DNA of 32,000 bases, taken from Nostoc punctiforme PCC 73102. GTDB taxonomy: Bacteria; Cyanobacteriota; Cyanobacteriia; Cyanobacteriales; Nostocaceae. A model generated the notes under the pieces. It worked only from the letters and a program-made list of their open reading frames with translations, was not told the origin of the DNA and did no database searches. A program made the position numbers and the translations under genes. Below, in pieces: positions 8,415-15,328 of this stretch. The stretch covers positions 3,450,001-3,482,000 of the forward strand of contig NC_010628.1 in assembly GCF_000020025.1 (NCBI RefSeq), in the 5' to 3' direction. Position 1 is the stretch's first letter; every line of letters begins with the position of its first letter.

Positions 8415-8630
8415 TTAGGTGTCCTCGTCATCACCCACCAAGTCGCTAGTACCTTTTGGGTGTGTTTCAAACGATATTTGGGAAATAATTGCCTTTGCAT
8501 CTTCTAACGCCAAACGGGTCTTTTGGTGTTTGTAGGCGATTCCCAGTTGGTTGCACAGAGAAAACACTTTTTCTACAGGTATACTGTAGTCGGCTGCTAT
8601 CTCTGCGATCGATAGGTCTGCAAAACCCAT
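8415..8630 (-). CDS. Small conserved hypothetical protein, IF2_N-like helical domain with an acidic tail
   Basis: 71 aa. SIAEIAADYSIPVEKVFSLCNQLGIAYKHQKTRLALEDAKAII resembles the short IF-2 N-terminal-type helical module. Coding status is inferred from this pattern only. Confidence 0.5.
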   Translation of the reverse strand: MGFADLSIAEIAADYSIPVEKVFSLCNQLGIAYKHQKTRLALEDAKAIISQISFETHPKGTSDLVGDDEDT

Positions 8631-8781: not shown

Positions 8782-9609
8782 TTAACCTTTTCCCCCAGTG
8801 AAGGTAACGCTTTGAATAAAGTAACGATTAAAAAAGGCGTAAATACCTAAAGCTGGTAGGGTAAAGACCATAGAAGCCGCCATAATGTAGTTCCAATAGC
8901 TGATGTATTGGCCTTTGAAGGTATTCAGCCCCAAAGGGAGGGTAAACATTTCTGGGTCAAATAGGATAACTATCGGCAGTAAAAAATTATTCCAACTTCC
9001 CATAAATACAAAAACTGCCTGTGCCGCTAATGCTGGTTTGGCTAGAGGTAAGACAATATGTCGGAAAATTCCAAAGGTATTTAAGCCATCGAGTTGAGCC
9101 GCTTCTTCTAGTTCTTTAGGAAAATTAACAAAAAACTGCCGCATCATGAAGATAAAAGTGGCATTCACCATGCTAGGCACAATCATGCCTTGGTAAGAAT
9201 TCAACCAACCGATCGCTTTTAAAATCAAAAATGTCGGAATTAGGGTGATTTGCGCTGGTACTGCCAGCACAGCCAAGATGAGAAAGAACCAAAAGCGCTT
9301 ACCTACAAAACGCAGTCTTGCCAGGGCATAACCAGCCATTGAATTTAACAACAAGTTTAAAAGCGTAACGCTAACGGCAATTACCACACTATTGAACAAC
9401 CAGCGCCAAAATAACGGTTCTTGGAGAAATATTTGCCTGTAGTTGTCAAGAGTAAAATTCTTGGGGAGAAAGTTGGGTTCACCACCGACAATCTCTGTTA
9501 GCGGCTTAAATGATGCTGAAAGCGCCCAGAGAAAGGGAATTAGGGTAACGATCGCATAAAGTGTCAGCAAGACGTATAGCAAGACTTTTAAGCCAGAGAT
9601 TTTAGTCAA
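8782..9609 (-). CDS. Carbohydrate ABC transporter permease (MalG/UgpE-like)
   Basis: 275 aa with 6 TM segments and the EAA loop EEAAQLDGLNTFGIFRHIVLPLAKPAL. The TTG start overlaps the upstream stop (TTGA at 9606-9609), suggesting translational coupling. Confidence 0.9.
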   Translation of the reverse strand: MTKISGLKVLLYVLLTLYAIVTLIPFLWALSASFKPLTEIVGGEPNFLPKNFTLDNYRQIFLQEPLFWRWLFNSVVIAVSVTLLNLLLNSMAGYALARLRFVGKRFWFFLILAVLAVPAQITLIPTFLILKAIGWLNSYQGMIVPSMVNATFIFMMRQFFVNFPKELEEAAQLDGLNTFGIFRHIVLPLAKPALAAQAVFVFMGSWNNFLLPIVILFDPEMFTLPLGLNTFKGQYISYWNYIMAASMVFTLPALGIYAFFNRYFIQSVTFTGGKG

Positions 9610-10514
9610 ATCCGTTCGCCTCCAAAAAGTCGCCGTTGAATCAAACTGATGGCAACGATCGCGGCTGCTAACAAAAATGCGATCGCAGCTGCATATCCCA
9701 TTTGTAAATTCCGAAACACAGCTTGGTAAATTAGCAGCACCACAGTTAAGGTAGCGTTGTTCGGGCCGCCAGTACCCCCAGAAAAGATGTAAGACTGGTC
9801 AAAAAGTTGAAAAGTCCCAATCACCCCCACTGCTACCACAAAGAAGGTTACAGGCTTAAGCAAGGGAAGGGTAATGTGGATAAATTGCTTCCATCCATTT
9901 GCGCCATCGAGTTCTGCGGCTTCATAAAGTGTTTTGGGTATATCTTGCAACGCCGCCAGATAAATCACCATGAAAAATGGCGCGGTTGACCAAATGTTCA
10001 TGATTATAATACCTTTGAGGGCAACAGATGGATCGCCCAACCAGTTATAAGTAGGTAGCCCTACAAAAGTGAGAAAATCGTTTAGTAGCCCATCGGTGTT
10101 ATAAATCCACATAAAGATCAGCGTCAGCACTGCTGAAGAGGTGACTGTGGGCAAAAAATAAAGGATGCGCCACCAGTTTTTACCGCGAATCCCAGAATTC
10201 AGAGTTACCGCCAGAATTAAAGCTAAGACTGTTTGAGTTGGCACAACAATAGCTACATATTGTGCTGTGTTTCTTAAAGCAATCCAAACCCTTTCATCTT
10301 CAGCTAATCGTGTGAAGTTCCGAAAACCGATGAACTCGTACTCAATACCGCCGAGAAGTCGGACTTTTTGCAAGGAAAGAAAAACGGCGTAGAGAATGGG
10401 TAAGACTACAAAAGTCCCCAAAACTAGAATGGTCGGCATCATGAACATATACCCAGCTAAGTTTTCTGTGATATTCCACCTGGGGTTACTCCGCCGCCTG
10501 TTGATTGCAAACAC
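9606..10514 (-). CDS. Carbohydrate ABC transporter permease (MalF/UgpA-like)
   Basis: 302 aa with the EAA loop YEAAELDGANGWKQFIHITLPLLKP and a multi-TM profile. Confidence 0.9.
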   Translation of the reverse strand: MFAINRRRSNPRWNITENLAGYMFMMPTILVLGTFVVLPILYAVFLSLQKVRLLGGIEYEFIGFRNFTRLAEDERVWIALRNTAQYVAIVVPTQTVLALILAVTLNSGIRGKNWWRILYFLPTVTSSAVLTLIFMWIYNTDGLLNDFLTFVGLPTYNWLGDPSVALKGIIIMNIWSTAPFFMVIYLAALQDIPKTLYEAAELDGANGWKQFIHITLPLLKPVTFFVVAVGVIGTFQLFDQSYIFSGGTGGPNNATLTVVLLIYQAVFRNLQMGYAAAIAFLLAAAIVAISLIQRRLFGGERI

Positions 10515-10746
10515 TACAGAACCTCCGTTTAATCCCGCACTAACCCGGCTGTAGAGATGGGTTGTGCATGATTATTGATCCTACTCCTGTCATTAAATTA
10601 AGTTTCTATTTTTGGAAAGCCTAGACGCAAAACGGCGATTTACGAGATGTCGGTTGTATGAGTTAGCTGCTTATGTAATTTAGGGAACTATATATCTAGC
10701 TCCCTTGGGGATGCTAATTAACCCGACTCAAGCAAGAGGACACAAA

Positions 10747-13194
10747 ATGTCATATACAGCCTACTTACGTTCGATTAAAAGTGAACTCCAGAGAACTGAT
10801 AAAACTCAAAAAAGCCTACGGTTAAAAACTATCATAGAACAGTTTGGCTACCAGCGTAGAAGTCAATCATTCATAGATAATTTTAATACTGCTCTTGGTG
10901 AATTGGGACTTTGTGCAAATCCTTGCTTGGATTTGTATATTCCACTAGATACAAAAATTGCTATTTCTATTAAAGGTGTAGAACCAATCAATAAAATAGC
11001 TGAATCTGAATCAATTTCAGTCAAACTACAAGAAGCAATTTCAGTCAAACATGATTTTTTCTACTACTTGTTTGATTTTGGCTCTGAACAAGAATATGAA
11101 CGATTTCAAGCATGTTTAGATTCTCATCAGCCAGTAGGTATTTTTTTGATTCCCCAAGTAGAAGATTTCTTCTCTGATACTGTTGTCAAAATATTTAATT
11201 ATGAACTAATTAGAAAATATCAATACGGAGGATATAATAGTATCCCAAAAGCTGCTACTAGAAAAATCCCTACAAGTCTTGCCTCAGATCAAGAGTGTGA
11301 CGATGAACAGGAAAATCCCATTTCTGATGCTAACATTTTTCAGTTTCATCGCTCAACTATGACCAGTATTATACTTGGTAATACTGGTTTAGAGTTGCTT
11401 GATTCGGAAAAATTTGATCGGCAGTTTGAACAGATATCTCTATCTGCCAATAAATATAATTCTGAACAGCTTTTTATTTTATTTCATTGTCCATCAGTAT
11501 TAGAAATCCAAGCTCATCAGCAAGAAGATGCTTTAGGATACTTGGTAGATAGAGTTGCCAGTAAAATTCCTTTTACTTTTACTCTCAGATGTAAATACCC
11601 AAATGAAGCCTCTCTTGAGCATAAAGAAGAAGTATATGCTCATTTTCGTCTACTGCTGGAACTTCCATATTATCAAATAGAGGAAGATGATGCATCTTTG
11701 CGAGATTATTTTGTAGATTTGCAAAAAGCTCAAATACAGGCTGAATCACAGTTATTGTTGAAGATAAAACCCGAACATTTTTACAGTCTGAAGTGGCAAC
11801 AAGAAAGTAAAGAATATATTTATCTCAAGTATTTTGCTATTAAAACCTTAGAAAGTCTAGGATATGAATTGTCTAATATTGGCTGTGAAGTTGAGTTGAC
11901 TTCTAAGGATGAGGAAACATCAGATGAAGATACATCAGATGATTATGAAGAGTATCAAAGCGAAATTATAGAAGTATATGTAAAAAATCAGGTAGTGGTT
12001 GAGATAGAAACTCTCAAATACCAAGAATTTCAGGATAATAATCTCTTTTTAGATCCCCTGAAAAGAGTTTTGAGGCAATCAAAAGTATGGCCGAATAAGC
12101 TAGAAAGTCTTTGGTTGGTAATTCCCGGTTTTGAGATTGCCCGTAACTATTACCAACTAAAAAAGGCTAAGGAAATCTTAGAATATAAGTTATCTGGATA
12201 TTATGGCGATCGCTTCCAGGTTGTAATCATGGCTCCTGATTATGAAAAACACCAATTAGTCCCAGTATCATTTGATTCTATTGAATATCCATCTTTTGGG
12301 TATGGGGTTAAAAAACCTAGTTTATTACAGACATATCCAGTTACTAATCGCGTTAAAGAATTTAAGCTGGACTTTAGCCAAGTAAAAGGTTTAAACGAAG
12401 AAAAAGACAAACTAGATAAACTTCTCAAGCTGCAATCTAAGGGACATAAGGGTTCAATTGGTGGAATTCTTTTCTATGGATTACCTGGATGTGGTAAAAC
12501 TCTACTGGCAAATGCTTTTGCTAATGAGTCTGGCAGATATTTCTTTAAATTCTCCCCTGCTGATATTGTCAGTGTTTGGATAGGTCAAAGTCAAAAAAAT
12601 ATTCGAGATATCTTTGCTCAAGCTAAGAAAAAAGCTCCTTCCGTTTTATTTATTGATGAGTTAGACAGTATTGGGTTTAATCGTAACGAAGACAACGCCC
12701 ATACAGACCAAAAAGCAACTATTAATCAATTACTCATAGAACTAAATAATCTTCAAAATAGTGACGTAATTGTGATAGCTGCTACTAATTATTTGAGCGG
12801 TATAGATAGTGCTTTGAAACGTTCTGGTAGATTGGATTGGAAGATTCCTATCTTTCCACCATCTCAAGTAGAAAGAATAGAACTCTTCATACACTACCTG
12901 TCAAAAATTGATATGAATCAGCTAGTTAACTTTGAAATGCTGGCAGAGAAAAGTATGAAGTTTACGTCATCAGATATCGAGTTAGTTTGTCGGGAAGTTA
13001 GAAATGCTATTCTTCTAGAAGAAATAAGTTCAGCTTTAACAACTTCCGATGTGATTACTTACATCAATAATCTACAAGATGGTGGTTTAAGTCTTAACCA
13101 AGAACAAGTCAAGGAATTTGTGGAAGAGTGTAAAAGAATGAGTGTGAAGAATCCTAAGTTAGAAACCCTGAAATTAGAATGGGCTTTGTATTAA
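10747..13194 (+). CDS. Large fusion protein: about 550 aa of uncharacterised N-terminal region plus a C-terminal classic-clade AAA ATPase module
   Basis: Motifs present: Walker A GLPGCGKT, Walker B VLFIDELD, sensor-1 IAATN, second region of homology with Arg residues SALKRSGRLD, and a helical lid. I recognise no motif in the N-terminal region. The track ORF begins at TTG 10705; the ATG at 10747 is preceded by AGAGGA. The gene is AT-rich relative to its neighbours. Confidence 0.85.
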   Translation: MSYTAYLRSIKSELQRTDKTQKSLRLKTIIEQFGYQRRSQSFIDNFNTALGELGLCANPCLDLYIPLDTKIAISIKGVEPINKIAESESISVKLQEAISVKHDFFYYLFDFGSEQEYERFQACLDSHQPVGIFLIPQVEDFFSDTVVKIFNYELIRKYQYGGYNSIPKAATRKIPTSLASDQECDDEQENPISDANIFQFHRSTMTSIILGNTGLELLDSEKFDRQFEQISLSANKYNSEQLFILFHCPSVLEIQAHQQEDALGYLVDRVASKIPFTFTLRCKYPNEASLEHKEEVYAHFRLLLELPYYQIEEDDASLRDYFVDLQKAQIQAESQLLLKIKPEHFYSLKWQQESKEYIYLKYFAIKTLESLGYELSNIGCEVELTSKDEETSDEDTSDDYEEYQSEIIEVYVKNQVVVEIETLKYQEFQDNNLFLDPLKRVLRQSKVWPNKLESLWLVIPGFEIARNYYQLKKAKEILEYKLSGYYGDRFQVVIMAPDYEKHQLVPVSFDSIEYPSFGYGVKKPSLLQTYPVTNRVKEFKLDFSQVKGLNEEKDKLDKLLKLQSKGHKGSIGGILFYGLPGCGKTLLANAFANESGRYFFKFSPADIVSVWIGQSQKNIRDIFAQAKKKAPSVLFIDELDSIGFNRNEDNAHTDQKATINQLLIELNNLQNSDVIVIAATNYLSGIDSALKRSGRLDWKIPIFPPSQVERIELFIHYLSKIDMNQLVNFEMLAEKSMKFTSSDIELVCREVRNAILLEEISSALTTSDVITYINNLQDGGLSLNQEQVKEFVEECKRMSVKNPKLETLKLEWALY

Positions 13195-13366
13195 CAATAT
13201 GCTATTACAAATAGCGAGCGCTACTTTTTTAGTGCCGAAATAAATATACTCAATTACACGATCGCTTGAACCTGATTGAGTAAATCTCTGGTTTAAGAAT
13301 GCGATCGCTTTTGATTGTGTATATTTTTGTTGAGCGATCGGCAGACTTTCAAATATTCCTATCCTG

Positions 13367-13648
13367 CTATTGTTTAGGGTCGCGTTTGACGTGAAAGCAG
13401 GCGATAATAGTAATTACATCTTGTTCCAAGATATACATCATTCCATAAGGAAATCGGCGTATTAAAACTCGTCGTACTTGTCGATAAACTTGAGGATAAG
13501 CTAAAGGGTTGCGTCCGATTAATGCCAAACTGCTATCGACAGCACGTACAAATTCTGAACCTAATCCAGAACTACGTTGCTCGTACCATTCAAAACCATC
13601 TTGGATATCAAGCTCTGCTTCTGGGCTAATAATTAACTGATAAATCAT
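13367..13648 (-). CDS. Type II toxin-antitoxin system toxin, RelE/ParE family
   Basis: 93 aa. The pattern A..D...I..Y......G...F......L..I..NP..YP......+RR.L+RRFPY...Y......+.I+...H..RDP is typical of ParE-like plasmid-stabilisation toxins. The start overlaps the antitoxin stop (ATGA at 13645-13648). Confidence 0.85.
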   Translation of the reverse strand: MIYQLIISPEAELDIQDGFEWYEQRSSGLGSEFVRAVDSSLALIGRNPLAYPQVYRQVRRVLIRRFPYGMMYILEQDVITIIACFHVKRDPKQ

Positions 13649-13866
13649 TGAGAAAAACCCAGTCTTTGCTTAACCTCTTCCCAGGTTGAACCCTGATTTG
13701 GGTTTTGACGATGTGTTTCTAAACGTCTATCCAATTCTTGTTTTTGCTCTTCGCTCAGAATTACTGCATTAGTGTCAGTTAGAATGCTATCCCATAAATC
13801 CTCTGCAAGTTGTATTCGTTCGGATACGCTTAATTGGGAAATATCAATGTTTAATAGGGGATGCAT
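13645..13866 (-). CDS. Putative addiction-module antitoxin (TIGR02574 / Unstab_antitox-like)
   Basis: 73 aa with LSVSERIQLAEDLWDSI...LSEEQKQELDRRLETHRQNP...TWEEVKQRL, the usual signature of this antitoxin family. It lies upstream of the toxin and is translationally coupled to it. Confidence 0.75.
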   Translation of the reverse strand: MHPLLNIDISQLSVSERIQLAEDLWDSILTDTNAVILSEEQKQELDRRLETHRQNPNQGSTWEEVKQRLGFSQ

Positions 13867-14068
13867 AGTTATTTACTATTGTTAACTAACATTTACAATT
13901 TTAAGTCAATTTTTTGCTAGTTGTTTTGTTTGCTTCATTATGTATCTTCGGTTGAGATAGAGTTATTAATCCCGATTTTAAGTCATTACTCATTCAGATC
14001 CCCAGATTTCTAACTTCTGCAAGAAGTCGGGTTTTGATTCGTTATGAGTACAAAAAACTTGCTATGCA

Positions 14069-15328
14069 TTACTCCATCGCCTTAATTTGCTGATTAGCTT
14101 CATTCTGTGCCTTCATCATCGCTTGCTTTAATGGTTGTTGCCCCAACAAGGCGCTGACAAACTGGTTCTCAAAGTTATTCACGATCACACTTGGATATTT
14201 ACCCACCTGCCAAGATGTAGCATAATCGACTCCCGCCACTAATGGCGATCGCAGTGCATCTTGGTCATAGCCCAAATTCTTTGCCACTGATTTACGTGTT
14301 GGCAAAGCAAATCCTGTTCCTGTCCACTTCTGCATTCCTTCTTTACCCGTGAGATAAGAAATCAACTTCCAGGCTTCGGCTTTGTGCTGTGCTTGCTTGT
14401 TCATCACATAGGCAACTGTAAAGACCATTGTGCCTTTTTTGCCGTTAATCGTAGGTACCGGCGCGGTAGCAAACTCTACTTGGGGAAAGGTTTCAGTTAA
14501 ATAAGGAATTGCCCAGTTACCCTCAATCACCATTGCTACTTTACTCTGACCAAACATTTCACTACCTGAGTTTGTTCCTACATCAGATTTTTGGGCGGAG
14601 GAACGGTCTTTTTGATACTGGTCTACTACTAACTCTAAACCCTTTAAACCTGCCTCACTCGCAAAGGTAGCAGAACCATTTTGATCGATGAGCTGCCCAC
14701 CAAAGGCTTTAATTTTATAAGCCTGACGCGCTAATTCGGGAATTTCCCCAAAGCCGTATTTATTAAGTTTGCCTATCAATTGTTTCGAGTAGTTACGTAA
14801 TTCATCCCAAGTAGCTGGCGGATTACTCAACCCTGCCGCGGCGAATGCTTTTTTGTTATAAAACAGGGCAAGGGTGGAATAGTCTTTGGGAAGACCATAA
14901 ATATGATTTTGATATTTGAAACTATCGAGTAGGGTATCTTCAAAATCCGTTAGGTCAAATTCGGGGGTAATGTAACTTTCTAACGGTTCTAGAACATTCT
15001 GACTCATCAAGAAAGGAGCTTCCAGCGCATCGAGATAAAAGACATCGGGTGCTGCTTCCCCAACCAAACGAGTTTTGATTACATCCATGTATTGGTCGGA
15101 GATTACCTCATATTTGACCTTAATAGTTGGATGTTGTACCTCAAACTCTCGCAATACCTGTCTCAAGAGTTTTTGCTCAACAGGAGAACCTCCCCAGCCA
15201 CTAAGTTTGATACTAACTGCGGTAGATGCTAAGGGTTTGCTTGGTAATTGTAGACTTTGACAAGCAATAATAGCGATCGCGATCGCCATTACTAATCCCA
15301 AAAAATTAAATAATCTTTTTTTGATCAC
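14069..15328 (-). CDS. Sugar ABC transporter substrate-binding lipoprotein (solute-binding family 1)
   Basis: 419 aa with a signal peptide carrying a lipobox-like AIIAC. Family-1 SBP patterns are present (WGG...Q...L...F....P.I.V; DVFYLD; ALFYNK; ATWDEL). Confidence 0.9.
   Translation of the reverse strand: MIKKRLFNFLGLVMAIAIAIIACQSLQLPSKPLASTAVSIKLSGWGGSPVEQKLLRQVLREFEVQHPTIKVKYEVISDQYMDVIKTRLVGEAAPDVFYLDALEAPFLMSQNVLEPLESYITPEFDLTDFEDTLLDSFKYQNHIYGLPKDYSTLALFYNKKAFAAAGLSNPPATWDELRNYSKQLIGKLNKYGFGEIPELARQAYKIKAFGGQLIDQNGSATFASEAGLKGLELVVDQYQKDRSSAQKSDVGTNSGSEMFGQSKVAMVIEGNWAIPYLTETFPQVEFATAPVPTINGKKGTMVFTVAYVMNKQAQHKAEAWKLISYLTGKEGMQKWTGTGFALPTRKSVAKNLGYDQDALRSPLVAGVDYATSWQVGKYPSVIVNNFENQFVSALLGQQPLKQAMMKAQNEANQQIKAME

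Follow-up and report, generated by a model that had tools for sequence, protein, structure and literature searches.

In the 32,000-nucleotide stretch of Nostoc punctiforme PCC 73102 DNA analysed here (NC_010628.1, positions 3,450,001 to 3,482,000 of the forward strand; referred to as the window), an AT-rich segment at positions 10515-14068 separates the gene of a sugar-type substrate-binding protein (SBP) from the two permease genes, PermA and PermB, of an ATP-binding cassette (ABC) transporter. The segment carries an AAA ATPase fusion gene (the AAA gene) and a toxin-antitoxin (TA) pair. It is probably (about 0.78) cargo of a long-lived hotspot that is flanked by core genes, and this cargo would be made of two layers of different age. 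The flanks are constant among related genomes, an empty allele of the site exists, and the content varies among close relatives, as in known hotspots. The older layer, formed by the AAA gene, has diverged to the same extent as its transporter neighbours, and the TA cassette, which forms the younger layer, is about three times less diverged at synonymous sites than the genes that flank it. Positions are given in the numbering of the whole stretch, with the prefix w where other loci are compared with the window.

The open reading frame (ORF) map and the family scans agree on the permeases, the SBP, the TA pair, and the AAA fusion, so that the gene layout given in a preliminary description of this DNA holds. 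The features are as follows:

8782-9609, minus strand: PermB, permease B of a CUT1-type sugar ABC transporter, 275 amino acids (aa); BPD_transp_1, 4.5e-18; conserved left anchor
9606-10514, minus strand: PermA, permease A, 302 aa, UgpA/GlcT/MalF-like; BPD_transp_1, 1.1e-17; 4-bp overlap with PermB
10515-10590, minus strand: permease leader, about 75 bp upstream of PermA; conserved; left edge of the variable zone
10591-10746, plus strand: upstream region of the AAA gene, common only to AAA-bearing loci; Shine-Dalgarno sequence AAGAGGA 8-14 nt before ATG 10747
10747-13194, plus strand: AAA fusion gene, 815 aa; PF00004 domain at residues 588-715; GC content 0.338, GC content at third codon positions (GC3) 0.245
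13195-13228: stretch just 3' of the AAA gene that AAA-bearing loci have in common; border between the older and younger layers
13227-13281: 55-bp element; seven loci that lack the AAA gene have it in this gap as well (blastn, 85-90% identity)
13301-14034, minus strand: TA cassette, younger layer; a HIP1 site is located right at its left end (13301)
13367-13648, minus strand: toxin of the ParE/RelE family, 93 aa; PF05016, 27.3 bits against a cutoff of 23, full-length match (1-89 of 89)
13645-13866, minus strand: antitoxin, 73 aa, PF09720/TIGR02574 'addiction module component'; PF09720, 3.9e-18; TIGR02574, 1.9e-23
14069-15328, minus strand: SBP, sugar-type substrate-binding protein, 419 aa; SBP_bac_1, 1.5e-39; conserved right anchor

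The mechanical ORF of the AAA gene begins at TTG 10705; ATG 10747 is the likelier start, being preceded by AAGAGGA and in agreement with the N-termini of homologues, and because it was taken as the start, the protein has 815 aa, as the preliminary description had estimated.

A variable site within a sugar transporter locus

An ortholog scan of the Nostocales, in which one genome was taken per species, yielded 80 orthologous SBP loci, and in 59 of them PermA lies downstream of the SBP gene on the same strand, at a distance of 144-9322 bp. The order MFS-SBP ... PermA-PermB-71-aa ORF is conserved in these 59 loci, which belong to many genera, and PermB is 92-100% identical across the Nostoc orthologous loci. 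The spacer is uninterrupted (144-433 bp) in ten of the 59, namely in four Nostoc (L008, L034, L036, and L040), Cylindrospermum FACHB-282, Aliinostoc, Fischerella, two Dolichospermum, and Scytonema; the remaining loci hold 0.9-9.3 kb. Because these ten loci keep them contiguous, the SBP and the permeases constitute one locus, and an empty-site allele exists. The earlier proposal that they form a single uptake system, split in the window, is thereby borne out by synteny comparison.

Both edges of the variable zone are sharp. In nearly all 80 loci, homology on the right stops no more than approx. 15 bp from the SBP stop codon (w14062-14084). On the left, about 75 bp above PermA (to w10585-10592) are kept in almost all loci, occupied or empty, and in loci without the AAA gene blastn homology to the window ends at exactly these positions. 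In the window itself, the edges of the zone thus lie at about 10586-10592 and 14062-14069. None of the marks of an integrase-mediated island were found in the segment: there is no unassigned ORF of integrase size within 10515-14068, no tRNA, tmRNA or Rfam element that could have served as an integration target, and no direct or inverted repeat above chance at the segment boundaries. Promoter-like sites number 11 against 14 expected, and a search of the segment for terminators returned none. The 9-mer TTAATCCCG, which had been noted near both edges, is indeed present at 10529-10537 and 13966-13974 and is statistically as weak as stated (shuffled sequences share a common 9-mer in 20% of cases), but it does not lie at the breakpoints. 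It was rejected as a target-site duplication because its left copy sits within the permease leader, which is kept even in uninterrupted loci.

When the ORFs of the 59 gaps were clustered and annotated, and the window was included, the 60 loci displayed 35 distinct ordered cargo strings, in spacers that range from empty up to 9.3 kb. TA-type cargo comprises Phd+PIN pairs (14 loci), other PIN toxins, HicAB, an AbiE fusion, and the ParE pair, and PADLOC candidates are represented by PDC-M36A/B (DUF8370 and a 135-aa protein) and PDC-S03 (Uma2). Further genes in the gaps encode CHAT-TPR and trypsin-like proteins, two families of alpha/beta hydrolases, an FAD monooxygenase, methyl- and glycosyltransferases, and a transposase. 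TA genes occur in 20 and PADLOC candidates in 12 of the 60 loci, both being raw counts without a genome-wide background. The TA pairs, AbiE, PDC-M36, and PDC-S03 present across genomes agree with the suggestion that the site receives conflict-type cargo. The opposite case considered in the preliminary description, in which most related genomes would share the same three genes, was not seen among the 35 strings. In particular, even L001 and L002, the two closest relatives (dS, the number of synonymous substitutions per site, approx. 0.15 to the window), carry other cargo than the window does between the AAA and SBP genes. The distance between the SBP and permease genes provides a simple comparative assay for the hotspot.

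Within this cargo, PDC-M36 was observed in L005 (11404-13557), L004, L024, and L081 (11583-13745; Cylindrospermum stagnale PCC 7417). It consists of a DUF8370 protein of 458 aa (E 9e-249 to PDC-M36A), the 135-aa PDC-M36B, and a third small ORF. The cassette has decayed to fragments in several genomes, and remnants are found in L006, L029, and L032.

Hotspots flanked by core genes have been described for the integration of defence islands in E. coli (PMC10121019) and as core defence hotspots in Pseudomonas aeruginosa (PMC10250203). The Nostoc site resembles them in its conserved core flanks, in the presence of an empty-site allele, in the many alternative sets of TA- or defence-type cargo among close relatives, and in that occupied sites often lack an integrase. 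It differs from them in that it is located inside a transporter cluster and not between unrelated core genes, in that one cargo gene, the AAA gene, has persisted for as long as the flanks have diverged, and in that much of the cargo (hydrolases, glycosyltransferases, oxidoreductases) is unrelated to defence. The site places a core-gene-flanked hotspot within a transporter cluster of multicellular cyanobacteria, in which the organisation of defence islands has been little charted.

Divergence, composition and movement of the two layers

The AAA gene, whether intact or decayed, is present in 18 of the 59 loci (19 of 60 with the window), where it always adjoins the permease leader on the opposite strand; C. 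stagnale PCC 7417 has it in the identical position. Homology across w10300-13216 is unbroken only in AAA-bearing loci and stops at w13193-13229, mostly at w13212-13228. Divergence at synonymous (dS) and nonsynonymous (dN) sites was estimated pairwise against the window by the Nei-Gojobori method, and the AAA gene was compared with the SBP, PermA, and PermB genes of the same genomes. In the 18 loci, dS of the AAA gene equals that of the flanks over a range from 0.14 to about 1 (Pearson r 0.97), as in these examples:

L001: AAA gene 0.14, flanks 0.14-0.18
L003: AAA gene 0.42, flanks 0.31-0.38
L045: AAA gene 0.66, flanks 0.55-0.88
C. stagnale: AAA gene 0.93, flanks 0.89-0.99

The dN/dS ratio is 0.09-0.13 for the whole gene, 0.10-0.17 for the N-terminal part, and 0.04-0.12 for the ATPase. 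Because dS matches that of the flanks and dN/dS is approx. 0.1, these substitution patterns indicate that the AAA gene has been inherited together with its neighbours under purifying selection. It would have been resident since at least the radiation of Nostoc, and probably since the split from C. stagnale.

The TA cassette has a different history. It is intact only in the window and in L010, is present as a broken copy in L013, and has no counterpart in L001 and L002. Between the window and L010, w13301-13908 is 96% identical, whereas w13975-14034, which follows a 66-bp indel, is 78% identical. For this pair of loci, dS is 0.10 in the TA genes and 0.28 in the flanks (binomial P = 2e-4). The AAA gene, compared with the flanks in its own set of loci, has an equally low GC3 and shows no dS deficit, and thus serves as an internal control. 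Because of this difference in dS, the TA cassette is judged to have been exchanged after the lineages of the window and L010 had split. A TA pair of 70% nucleotide identity, whose toxin homologue is annotated as RelE/ParE, is found in Anabaena cylindrica on the conjugative plasmid pANACY.01, where PIN and HicAB genes belong to the same TA cluster. The window pair has the ordinary form of a type II system of ParE/RelE and PF09720/TIGR02574 proteins: two small co-oriented genes, the antitoxin upstream, a 4-bp overlap (13645-13648), and scores above the cutoffs for both partners (for the antitoxin, 65.7 bits against 23.3 for PF09720 and 82.2 against 31.9 for TIGR02574). Nothing that would set it apart from such systems was found in the pair. 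It would act as a selfish or stabilising addiction module.

Composition alone suggests another picture. The GC content of the segment is 0.350 compared with 0.421 in the rest of the window (0.338 in the AAA coding sequence, 0.425-0.430 in the flanking genes). This is the minimum among all 3.55-kb windows, and non-overlapping windows go no lower than 0.382. The tetranucleotide L1 distance of the segment is 0.299, whereas other windows give 0.150 +/- 0.017 (maximum 0.182), a deviation of approx. 9 standard deviations. The deficit lies at synonymous sites, with a GC3 of 0.245 in the AAA gene, 0.28-0.29 in the TA genes, and 0.40-0.46 in the transporter genes. The atypical, AT-rich character assigned to the segment in the preliminary description is thus confirmed, but it does not point to recent arrival of the whole, as dS of the AAA gene tracks the flanks and only the TA cassette looks recently transferred. 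GC3 remains at 0.23-0.28 in all AAA orthologues (0.40-0.46 in the neighbours) despite dS values up to about 1. For this reason, AT-richness is a stable property of the gene and not an unameliorated trace of recent transfer; amelioration has not occurred, for which selection or a mutational bias specific to the gene may be responsible. Composition is therefore misleading at this locus, where the AT-rich AAA gene has co-diverged with its neighbours and the young genes are the less deviant ones, and calling recent transfer from composition would misjudge the SBP-permease locus. As for HIP1, 32 sites are distributed over the 32 kb, and the AAA gene does have the single site reported for it (12206), but the supposed depletion is not significant (approx. 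2.4 sites expected; Poisson P(<=1) approx. 0.3) and was rejected as a signal on its own.

Long residence has not protected the AAA gene from loss. In L001 (Nostoc sp. LEGE 12447, the closest relative; AAA gene at 12399-14888) there is an in-frame stop at codon 568, and in L007 (14563-17022) at codon 230; the two genes are otherwise 90-97% identical, and the stops may represent fresh pseudogenisation or assembly errors. L017 keeps the C-terminal half only, and L010, L043, L044, L046, and L059 keep short remnants; in L010 the gene was deleted, and a remnant matching w13128-13228 remains. The gene is dispensable and has been lost repeatedly by nonsense mutation or deletion.

The AAA gene also occurs elsewhere. 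A 76%-identical copy is located on the conjugative plasmid pCC7120gamma amid TnpB, ISL3, and ISAzo13 transposases. In Aliinostoc sp. HNIBRCY26, an orthologue (75% at the aa level) lies in an element of the xisF/xisH/xisI type beside nifS/nifU (L089:2253-10436), among genes for a serine recombinase, XisH, XisI, and Uma2, and thus seems to be carried by a DNA excision element of the heterocyst type; in this genome, the transporter site is empty (L056, 433 bp). N. linckia FACHB-104 carries the AAA gene at another locus, and paralogues of 55% identity neighbour either a plasmid-borne HaeIII-type restriction-modification (RM) system with an integrase or HigB together with a CHAT-TPR gene. AAA and TA genes were never found together outside the hotspot site. 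No blastn match was obtained among 50,697 phage records, and a search of IMG/VR yielded only relatives at the level of the ATPase domain; a phage origin was rejected on these grounds.

Turnover of the cargo would proceed by insertion, replacement, and decay between convergent 3' ends. The replaceable zone would extend from approx. 22-34 bp beyond the stop codon of the AAA gene to that of the SBP gene, and insertions there would harm nothing; the sharp breakpoints would reflect selection against damage to the SBP gene or the permease leader. The likely vehicle would be homologous recombination on the conserved flanks, the incoming DNA sometimes bringing approx. 200 bp of the SBP 3' end.

A separate observation concerns this 3' end. 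In eight loci (L001, L007, L011, L019, L027, L028, L032, and L041), the last approx. 200 bp of the SBP gene are repeated 0.3-0.9 kb downstream, always from the same SBP start position, with copies 80-99% identical. The repeats lie at 11057-11258 and 11966-12193 in L001 and at 11054-11253 and 11978-12177 in L041 (99% identical), and a Phd-PIN (VapBC-like) cassette or its remnant is either enclosed by them or precedes them. The repeats may be the footprint of Campbell-type integration via a short SBP-homologous arm, by which some of the cargo may enter. A decayed duplicate of this kind was sought in the spacer between the TA and SBP genes of the window and found no support (the local score of 13 was equalled or exceeded by 80 of 300 shuffles, whose mean was 11.7).

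The AAA protein and its nearest parallels

Approximately 113 full-length homologues of the AAA protein were collected from Nostocales, Bacteroidota (Microscilla, Cytophagales), Leptospiraceae, and other Spirochaetota; no neighbouring gene is conserved among them. The N-terminal region, used as a phmmer query against 1.84 billion proteins, retrieved 31 cluster representatives (clusters at 50% identity), nearly all of them with the same architecture or fragments of it. Residues 1-545 gave no match in Pfam, NCBIfam, or PADLOC, and sequence profiles of the subdomains found nothing credible in the PDB. In the AlphaFold2 model, the mean predicted local distance difference test score (pLDDT) is approx. 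80, and the N-terminal part has a predicted template modelling (TM) score of 0.71. The modules are as follows:

aa 1-75 (10747-10971, plus strand): alpha-beta-alpha-alpha-beta-beta, winged-helix-like topology, conserved RRSQ motif
aa 95-345 (11029-11781, plus strand): alpha/beta domain and helical bundle; no family match, no Walker motifs
aa 346-515 (11782-12291, plus strand): predicted restriction-endonuclease-like module, alpha-beta-beta-beta-alpha-beta
aa 545-815 (12379-13191, plus strand): classical-clade AAA ATPase; PF00004, 1.6e-37 (129 bits)

The first module may be winged-helix-like, as judged only from the order of its secondary-structure elements. For aa 95-345, the best Foldseek matches in the PDB were ORC4, Hda, and DnaC, all weak (E 5e-3 to 8e-2), and in an hhalign comparison with the AAA domain of the same protein the probability was 1.5%; a degenerate AAA D1 domain may be present, but the profile comparison does not support it.

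In the predicted structure, aa 346-515 show the alpha-beta-beta-beta-alpha-beta core of PD-(D/E)xK enzymes, with the elements H355-370, E378-385, E405-412, E416-420, H435-445, and E454-458 at a pLDDT of approx. 90. Candidate residues are E356, (C)E380, D/E407, and E419-x-E421-T422, accompanied by the invariant motifs PGFEIARNYYQ and PDY. With respect to the PD-(D/E)xK catalytic motif, most homologues have PD ... E-x-E-T, with PD at position 407, and the Nostoc clade, to which the window belongs, has IE for PD. The glutamate in place of lysine (PD...ExE) may be comparable to D94/E111/E113 of BamHI. Foldseek against BFVD retrieved a 'Restriction endonuclease' of Synechococcus phage S-CAM7 (probability 0.97, E 6e-3, TM score 0.43); searches of Pfam and the PDB with the sequence of this module returned no match. 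Similarity to a PDDEXK-type ORF from the same hotspot (L029) was also considered, and none was found. Nuclease activity of this candidate module is plausible.

The ATPase has the Walker A motif GLPGCGKT, the pore loop W-I-G, the Walker B motif FIDELD, the sensor-1 motif ATN, and the second region of homology ALKRSGRLD. These are invariant or nearly so in 40 homologues and, together with the arginine fingers, identify a classical AAA domain. The closest profiles are VAT/Cdc48-D2/p97 (E approx. 1e-103) and FtsH (1e-52). In a single polypeptide, the N-terminal modules would recognise, and perhaps cut, nucleic acid, and a hexameric AAA ring with its intact pore loop would supply ATP-driven remodelling or gating. 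The genes next to the paralogues, namely the HaeIII-type RM system and integrase in one context and HigB and CHAT-TPR in the other, lend contextual support to a role in conflict. A single-chain conflict system is put forward tentatively as the most likely function of the AAA protein, and a defence role is plausible.

Several known systems were compared. IetAS is an anti-phage, plasmid-stabilising system that consists of the AAA ATPase IetA and the subtilase IetS and whose mechanism is unknown (PMC13069673). IetA is the best PADLOC match of the window ATPase (E 4.7e-36, aa 570-812), and both belong to the same classical AAA clade; however, the window protein has 545 additional N-terminal residues that are absent from IetA. 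The NCBIfam model IteA_antiphage scores the AAA protein at 111.8 bits against a cutoff of 510, and no ORF for a subtilase-type protease such as IetS was found in or beside the gap, or beside the AAA homologues inspected. Membership in IetAS was rejected on the strength of this score, the confinement of the PADLOC hit to the ATPase, and the missing IetS.

In Type III-A CoCoNuT systems, SpoVK/CDC48-like ATPases with only the C-terminal ATPase active are encoded alongside an inactivated protein of the PD-(D/E)xK fold (PMC11090510). The window protein likewise is a classical AAA ATPase with Walker motifs only in its C-terminal ATPase, in a conflict context that involves a divergent or inactivated PD-(D/E)xK fold. 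Unlike in CoCoNuT, the endonuclease-like fold is fused into the AAA polypeptide, there is no McrBC/CoCoNuT operon, and the putative degenerate N-terminal P-loop-like domain is suggested only by weak Foldseek matches. With McrBC-type (Type IV) restriction systems, the protein would share a predicted DNA-binding N-terminal domain, an endonuclease-like module, and a ring NTPase, but this analogy is limited to function: the ATPase, which has an aromatic pore loop, is of the classical protein-unfoldase clade and not of the McrB GTPase clade, all modules are in one chain, and the nuclease is putative. The SpoVK/CDC48-like ATPases associated with CoCoNuT are the nearest published parallel found.

The hotspot and the TA pair thus appear to be of known kinds, and the AAA fusion family would be an uncharacterised variant among conflict proteins of the ATPase-nuclease type. 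This rare family, with its unmatched 545-aa N-terminal region, and cassettes such as PDC-M36 are candidates for anti-phage activity. A more specific proposal, which we regard as rather unlikely, is that the AAA gene is an undescribed single-gene immune or conflict system composed of a winged-helix-like DNA binder, a BamHI-like endonuclease module, and a classical Cdc48/FtsH-type unfoldase ring, kept for a long time at the Nostoc hotspot and travelling also on conjugative plasmids and developmentally excised elements. If this were true, the persistently low GC3 would be a selected property, related for instance to tight low-level expression, and not a trace of transfer.

Alternative readings and minor observations

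The preliminary description regarded the 3.5 kb as a horizontally acquired AT-rich islet; on the simplest model of this kind, its three genes would recently have entered an intact operon as a unit. The atypical GC content and tetranucleotide usage, the existence of uninterrupted loci, and the apparently recent transfer of the TA cassette are what would be expected from such an event. Yet no other locus has all three genes intact: L010 has the TA pair with an AAA remnant, L013 has the AAA gene with a decayed TA pair, and L001 and L002 share the AAA gene and hold other cargo in the place of the TA pair. In addition, dS of the AAA gene equals that of the flanks and dS of the TA genes is about threefold lower, and relatives of the two parts are found separately, on different plasmids; to the question whether the 3.5 kb travels as a unit, the answer is that it does not. 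Since terminal repeats and an integrase are lacking as well, acquisition in one piece is hardly credible. The converse reading, in which the AAA gene is a native regulator of the transporter or envelope, or a quality-control factor, the empty loci are secondary deletions, and the TA pair alone was inserted, draws on the long co-inheritance of the gene with its flanks at a dN/dS of approx. 0.1, on its position adjoining and diverging from the permease leader in 19 loci and in C. stagnale, and on the fact that classical AAA proteins are usually protein-remodelling enzymes. Against it, the outgroups Dolichospermum, Fischerella, and Scytonema have an empty site, as does Aliinostoc, where the gene resides in the xisF/xisH/xisI element; homologues lie on plasmids amid transposases, and those of Bacteroidota and Spirochaetes have no transporter nearby. 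Moreover, GC3 is 0.245 compared with 0.40-0.46 in native genes, at least eight lineages with an intact transporter have lost the gene through pseudogenisation or deletion, and the family is tiny and patchy, with its 31 representatives among 1.84e9 proteins. A native origin is accordingly improbable.

The match between IetA and the ATPase raises a further alternative, namely a two-component system, IetAS-like or other, in which the AAA protein would supply the ATPase; its partner would have been lost or replaced, and the window copy would be an orphan. One candidate partner is a co-directional serine hydrolase of the S9/S15/S33-type alpha/beta family, which follows the AAA gene by 14-84 bp in seven genomes: L002 (11664-12581), L003 (6012-6962), L007, L009, L048, L049, and L081 (10468-11385; C. 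stagnale). In the window this slot is held by the TA cassette. The hydrolase is, however, absent from the window, L005, L013, L015, L020, L029, L035, L038, L045, and L067 and from all contexts of paralogues and distant homologues, and purifying selection acts on the window copy as it does on the others. Because it is missing from most other AAA genomes, the hydrolase is, as far as gene neighbourhoods can tell, unlikely to be an obligate partner. With neither a subtilase nor a sufficient IteA score (112 bits against 510), an orphaned half of a two-component system is very improbable.

The reading of the segment as two-layered cargo of a core-gene-flanked hotspot is preferred to these three, although a number of points weigh against parts of it. 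The low dS of the TA genes rests on only approx. 107 synonymous sites. Values of dS near 1 are close to saturation, so that vertical inheritance of the AAA gene is best supported within Nostoc (dS <= 0.66) and less so for Cylindrospermum; the 18 loci are not independent of each other phylogenetically, and r = 0.97 therefore overstates the statistical support. AAA genes at other loci in Aliinostoc and N. linckia FACHB-104 (75-79% identity) mean that the gene does move on longer time scales. Recombination as the vehicle is something that we infer, and the window carries no SBP 3' duplicate. As regards conflict, the homologues in Cytophagales and Leptospiraceae sit amid housekeeping or sensory genes, PADLOC matches only the ATPase domain, and the nuclease-like module has neither a sequence-level family match nor the canonical lysine, the Nostoc clade also being devoid of PD.

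Further observations concern the remaining content of the gaps and the transporter itself. The 55-bp element of the window recurs in the AAA-less loci L011, L016, L021, L022, L026, L031, and L037, usually just upstream of an alpha/beta-hydrolase C1 gene, and could be a deletion scar or a small repeat. The gaps of L011, L016, L025, L031, and L061 contain a tandem-repeat tract (e.g., L061:11772-12122) with pseudo-ORFs on both strands that read ...SCSELET... and ...FQVLSTKF...; this is probably a Nostoc short tandem repeat array and not a set of genes.

No ABC ATPase subunit is encoded at the transporter locus, and the lack of a local ATPase subunit is common for CUT1 sugar transporters. The NCBIfam models nearest to PermB are GlcU, UgpE, and MalG, all under the cutoff. 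PermB may correspond to GlsP/All0261 of Anabaena, a putative orthology that the gene order petE, psbV, small ORF, permeases would suggest. GlsP/All0261 is a 276-aa permease of a glucoside transporter (PMC12421839). In L054 (Cylindrospermum NIES-4074), L057 (Tolypothrix tenuis PCC 7101), and L063 (Calothrix NIES-2100), PermA is not found within 10 kb downstream of SBP. As these genomes are complete or near-complete, the SBP and permease genes are more than 10 kb apart or unlinked in them, and the transporter may for this reason tolerate complete separation of its genes. Finally, the 71-aa ORF just downstream of PermB (8415-8630, minus strand) is 82-100% conserved in most Nostoc loci and has a weak IF2_N-like match (E 9e-4, under the cutoff).

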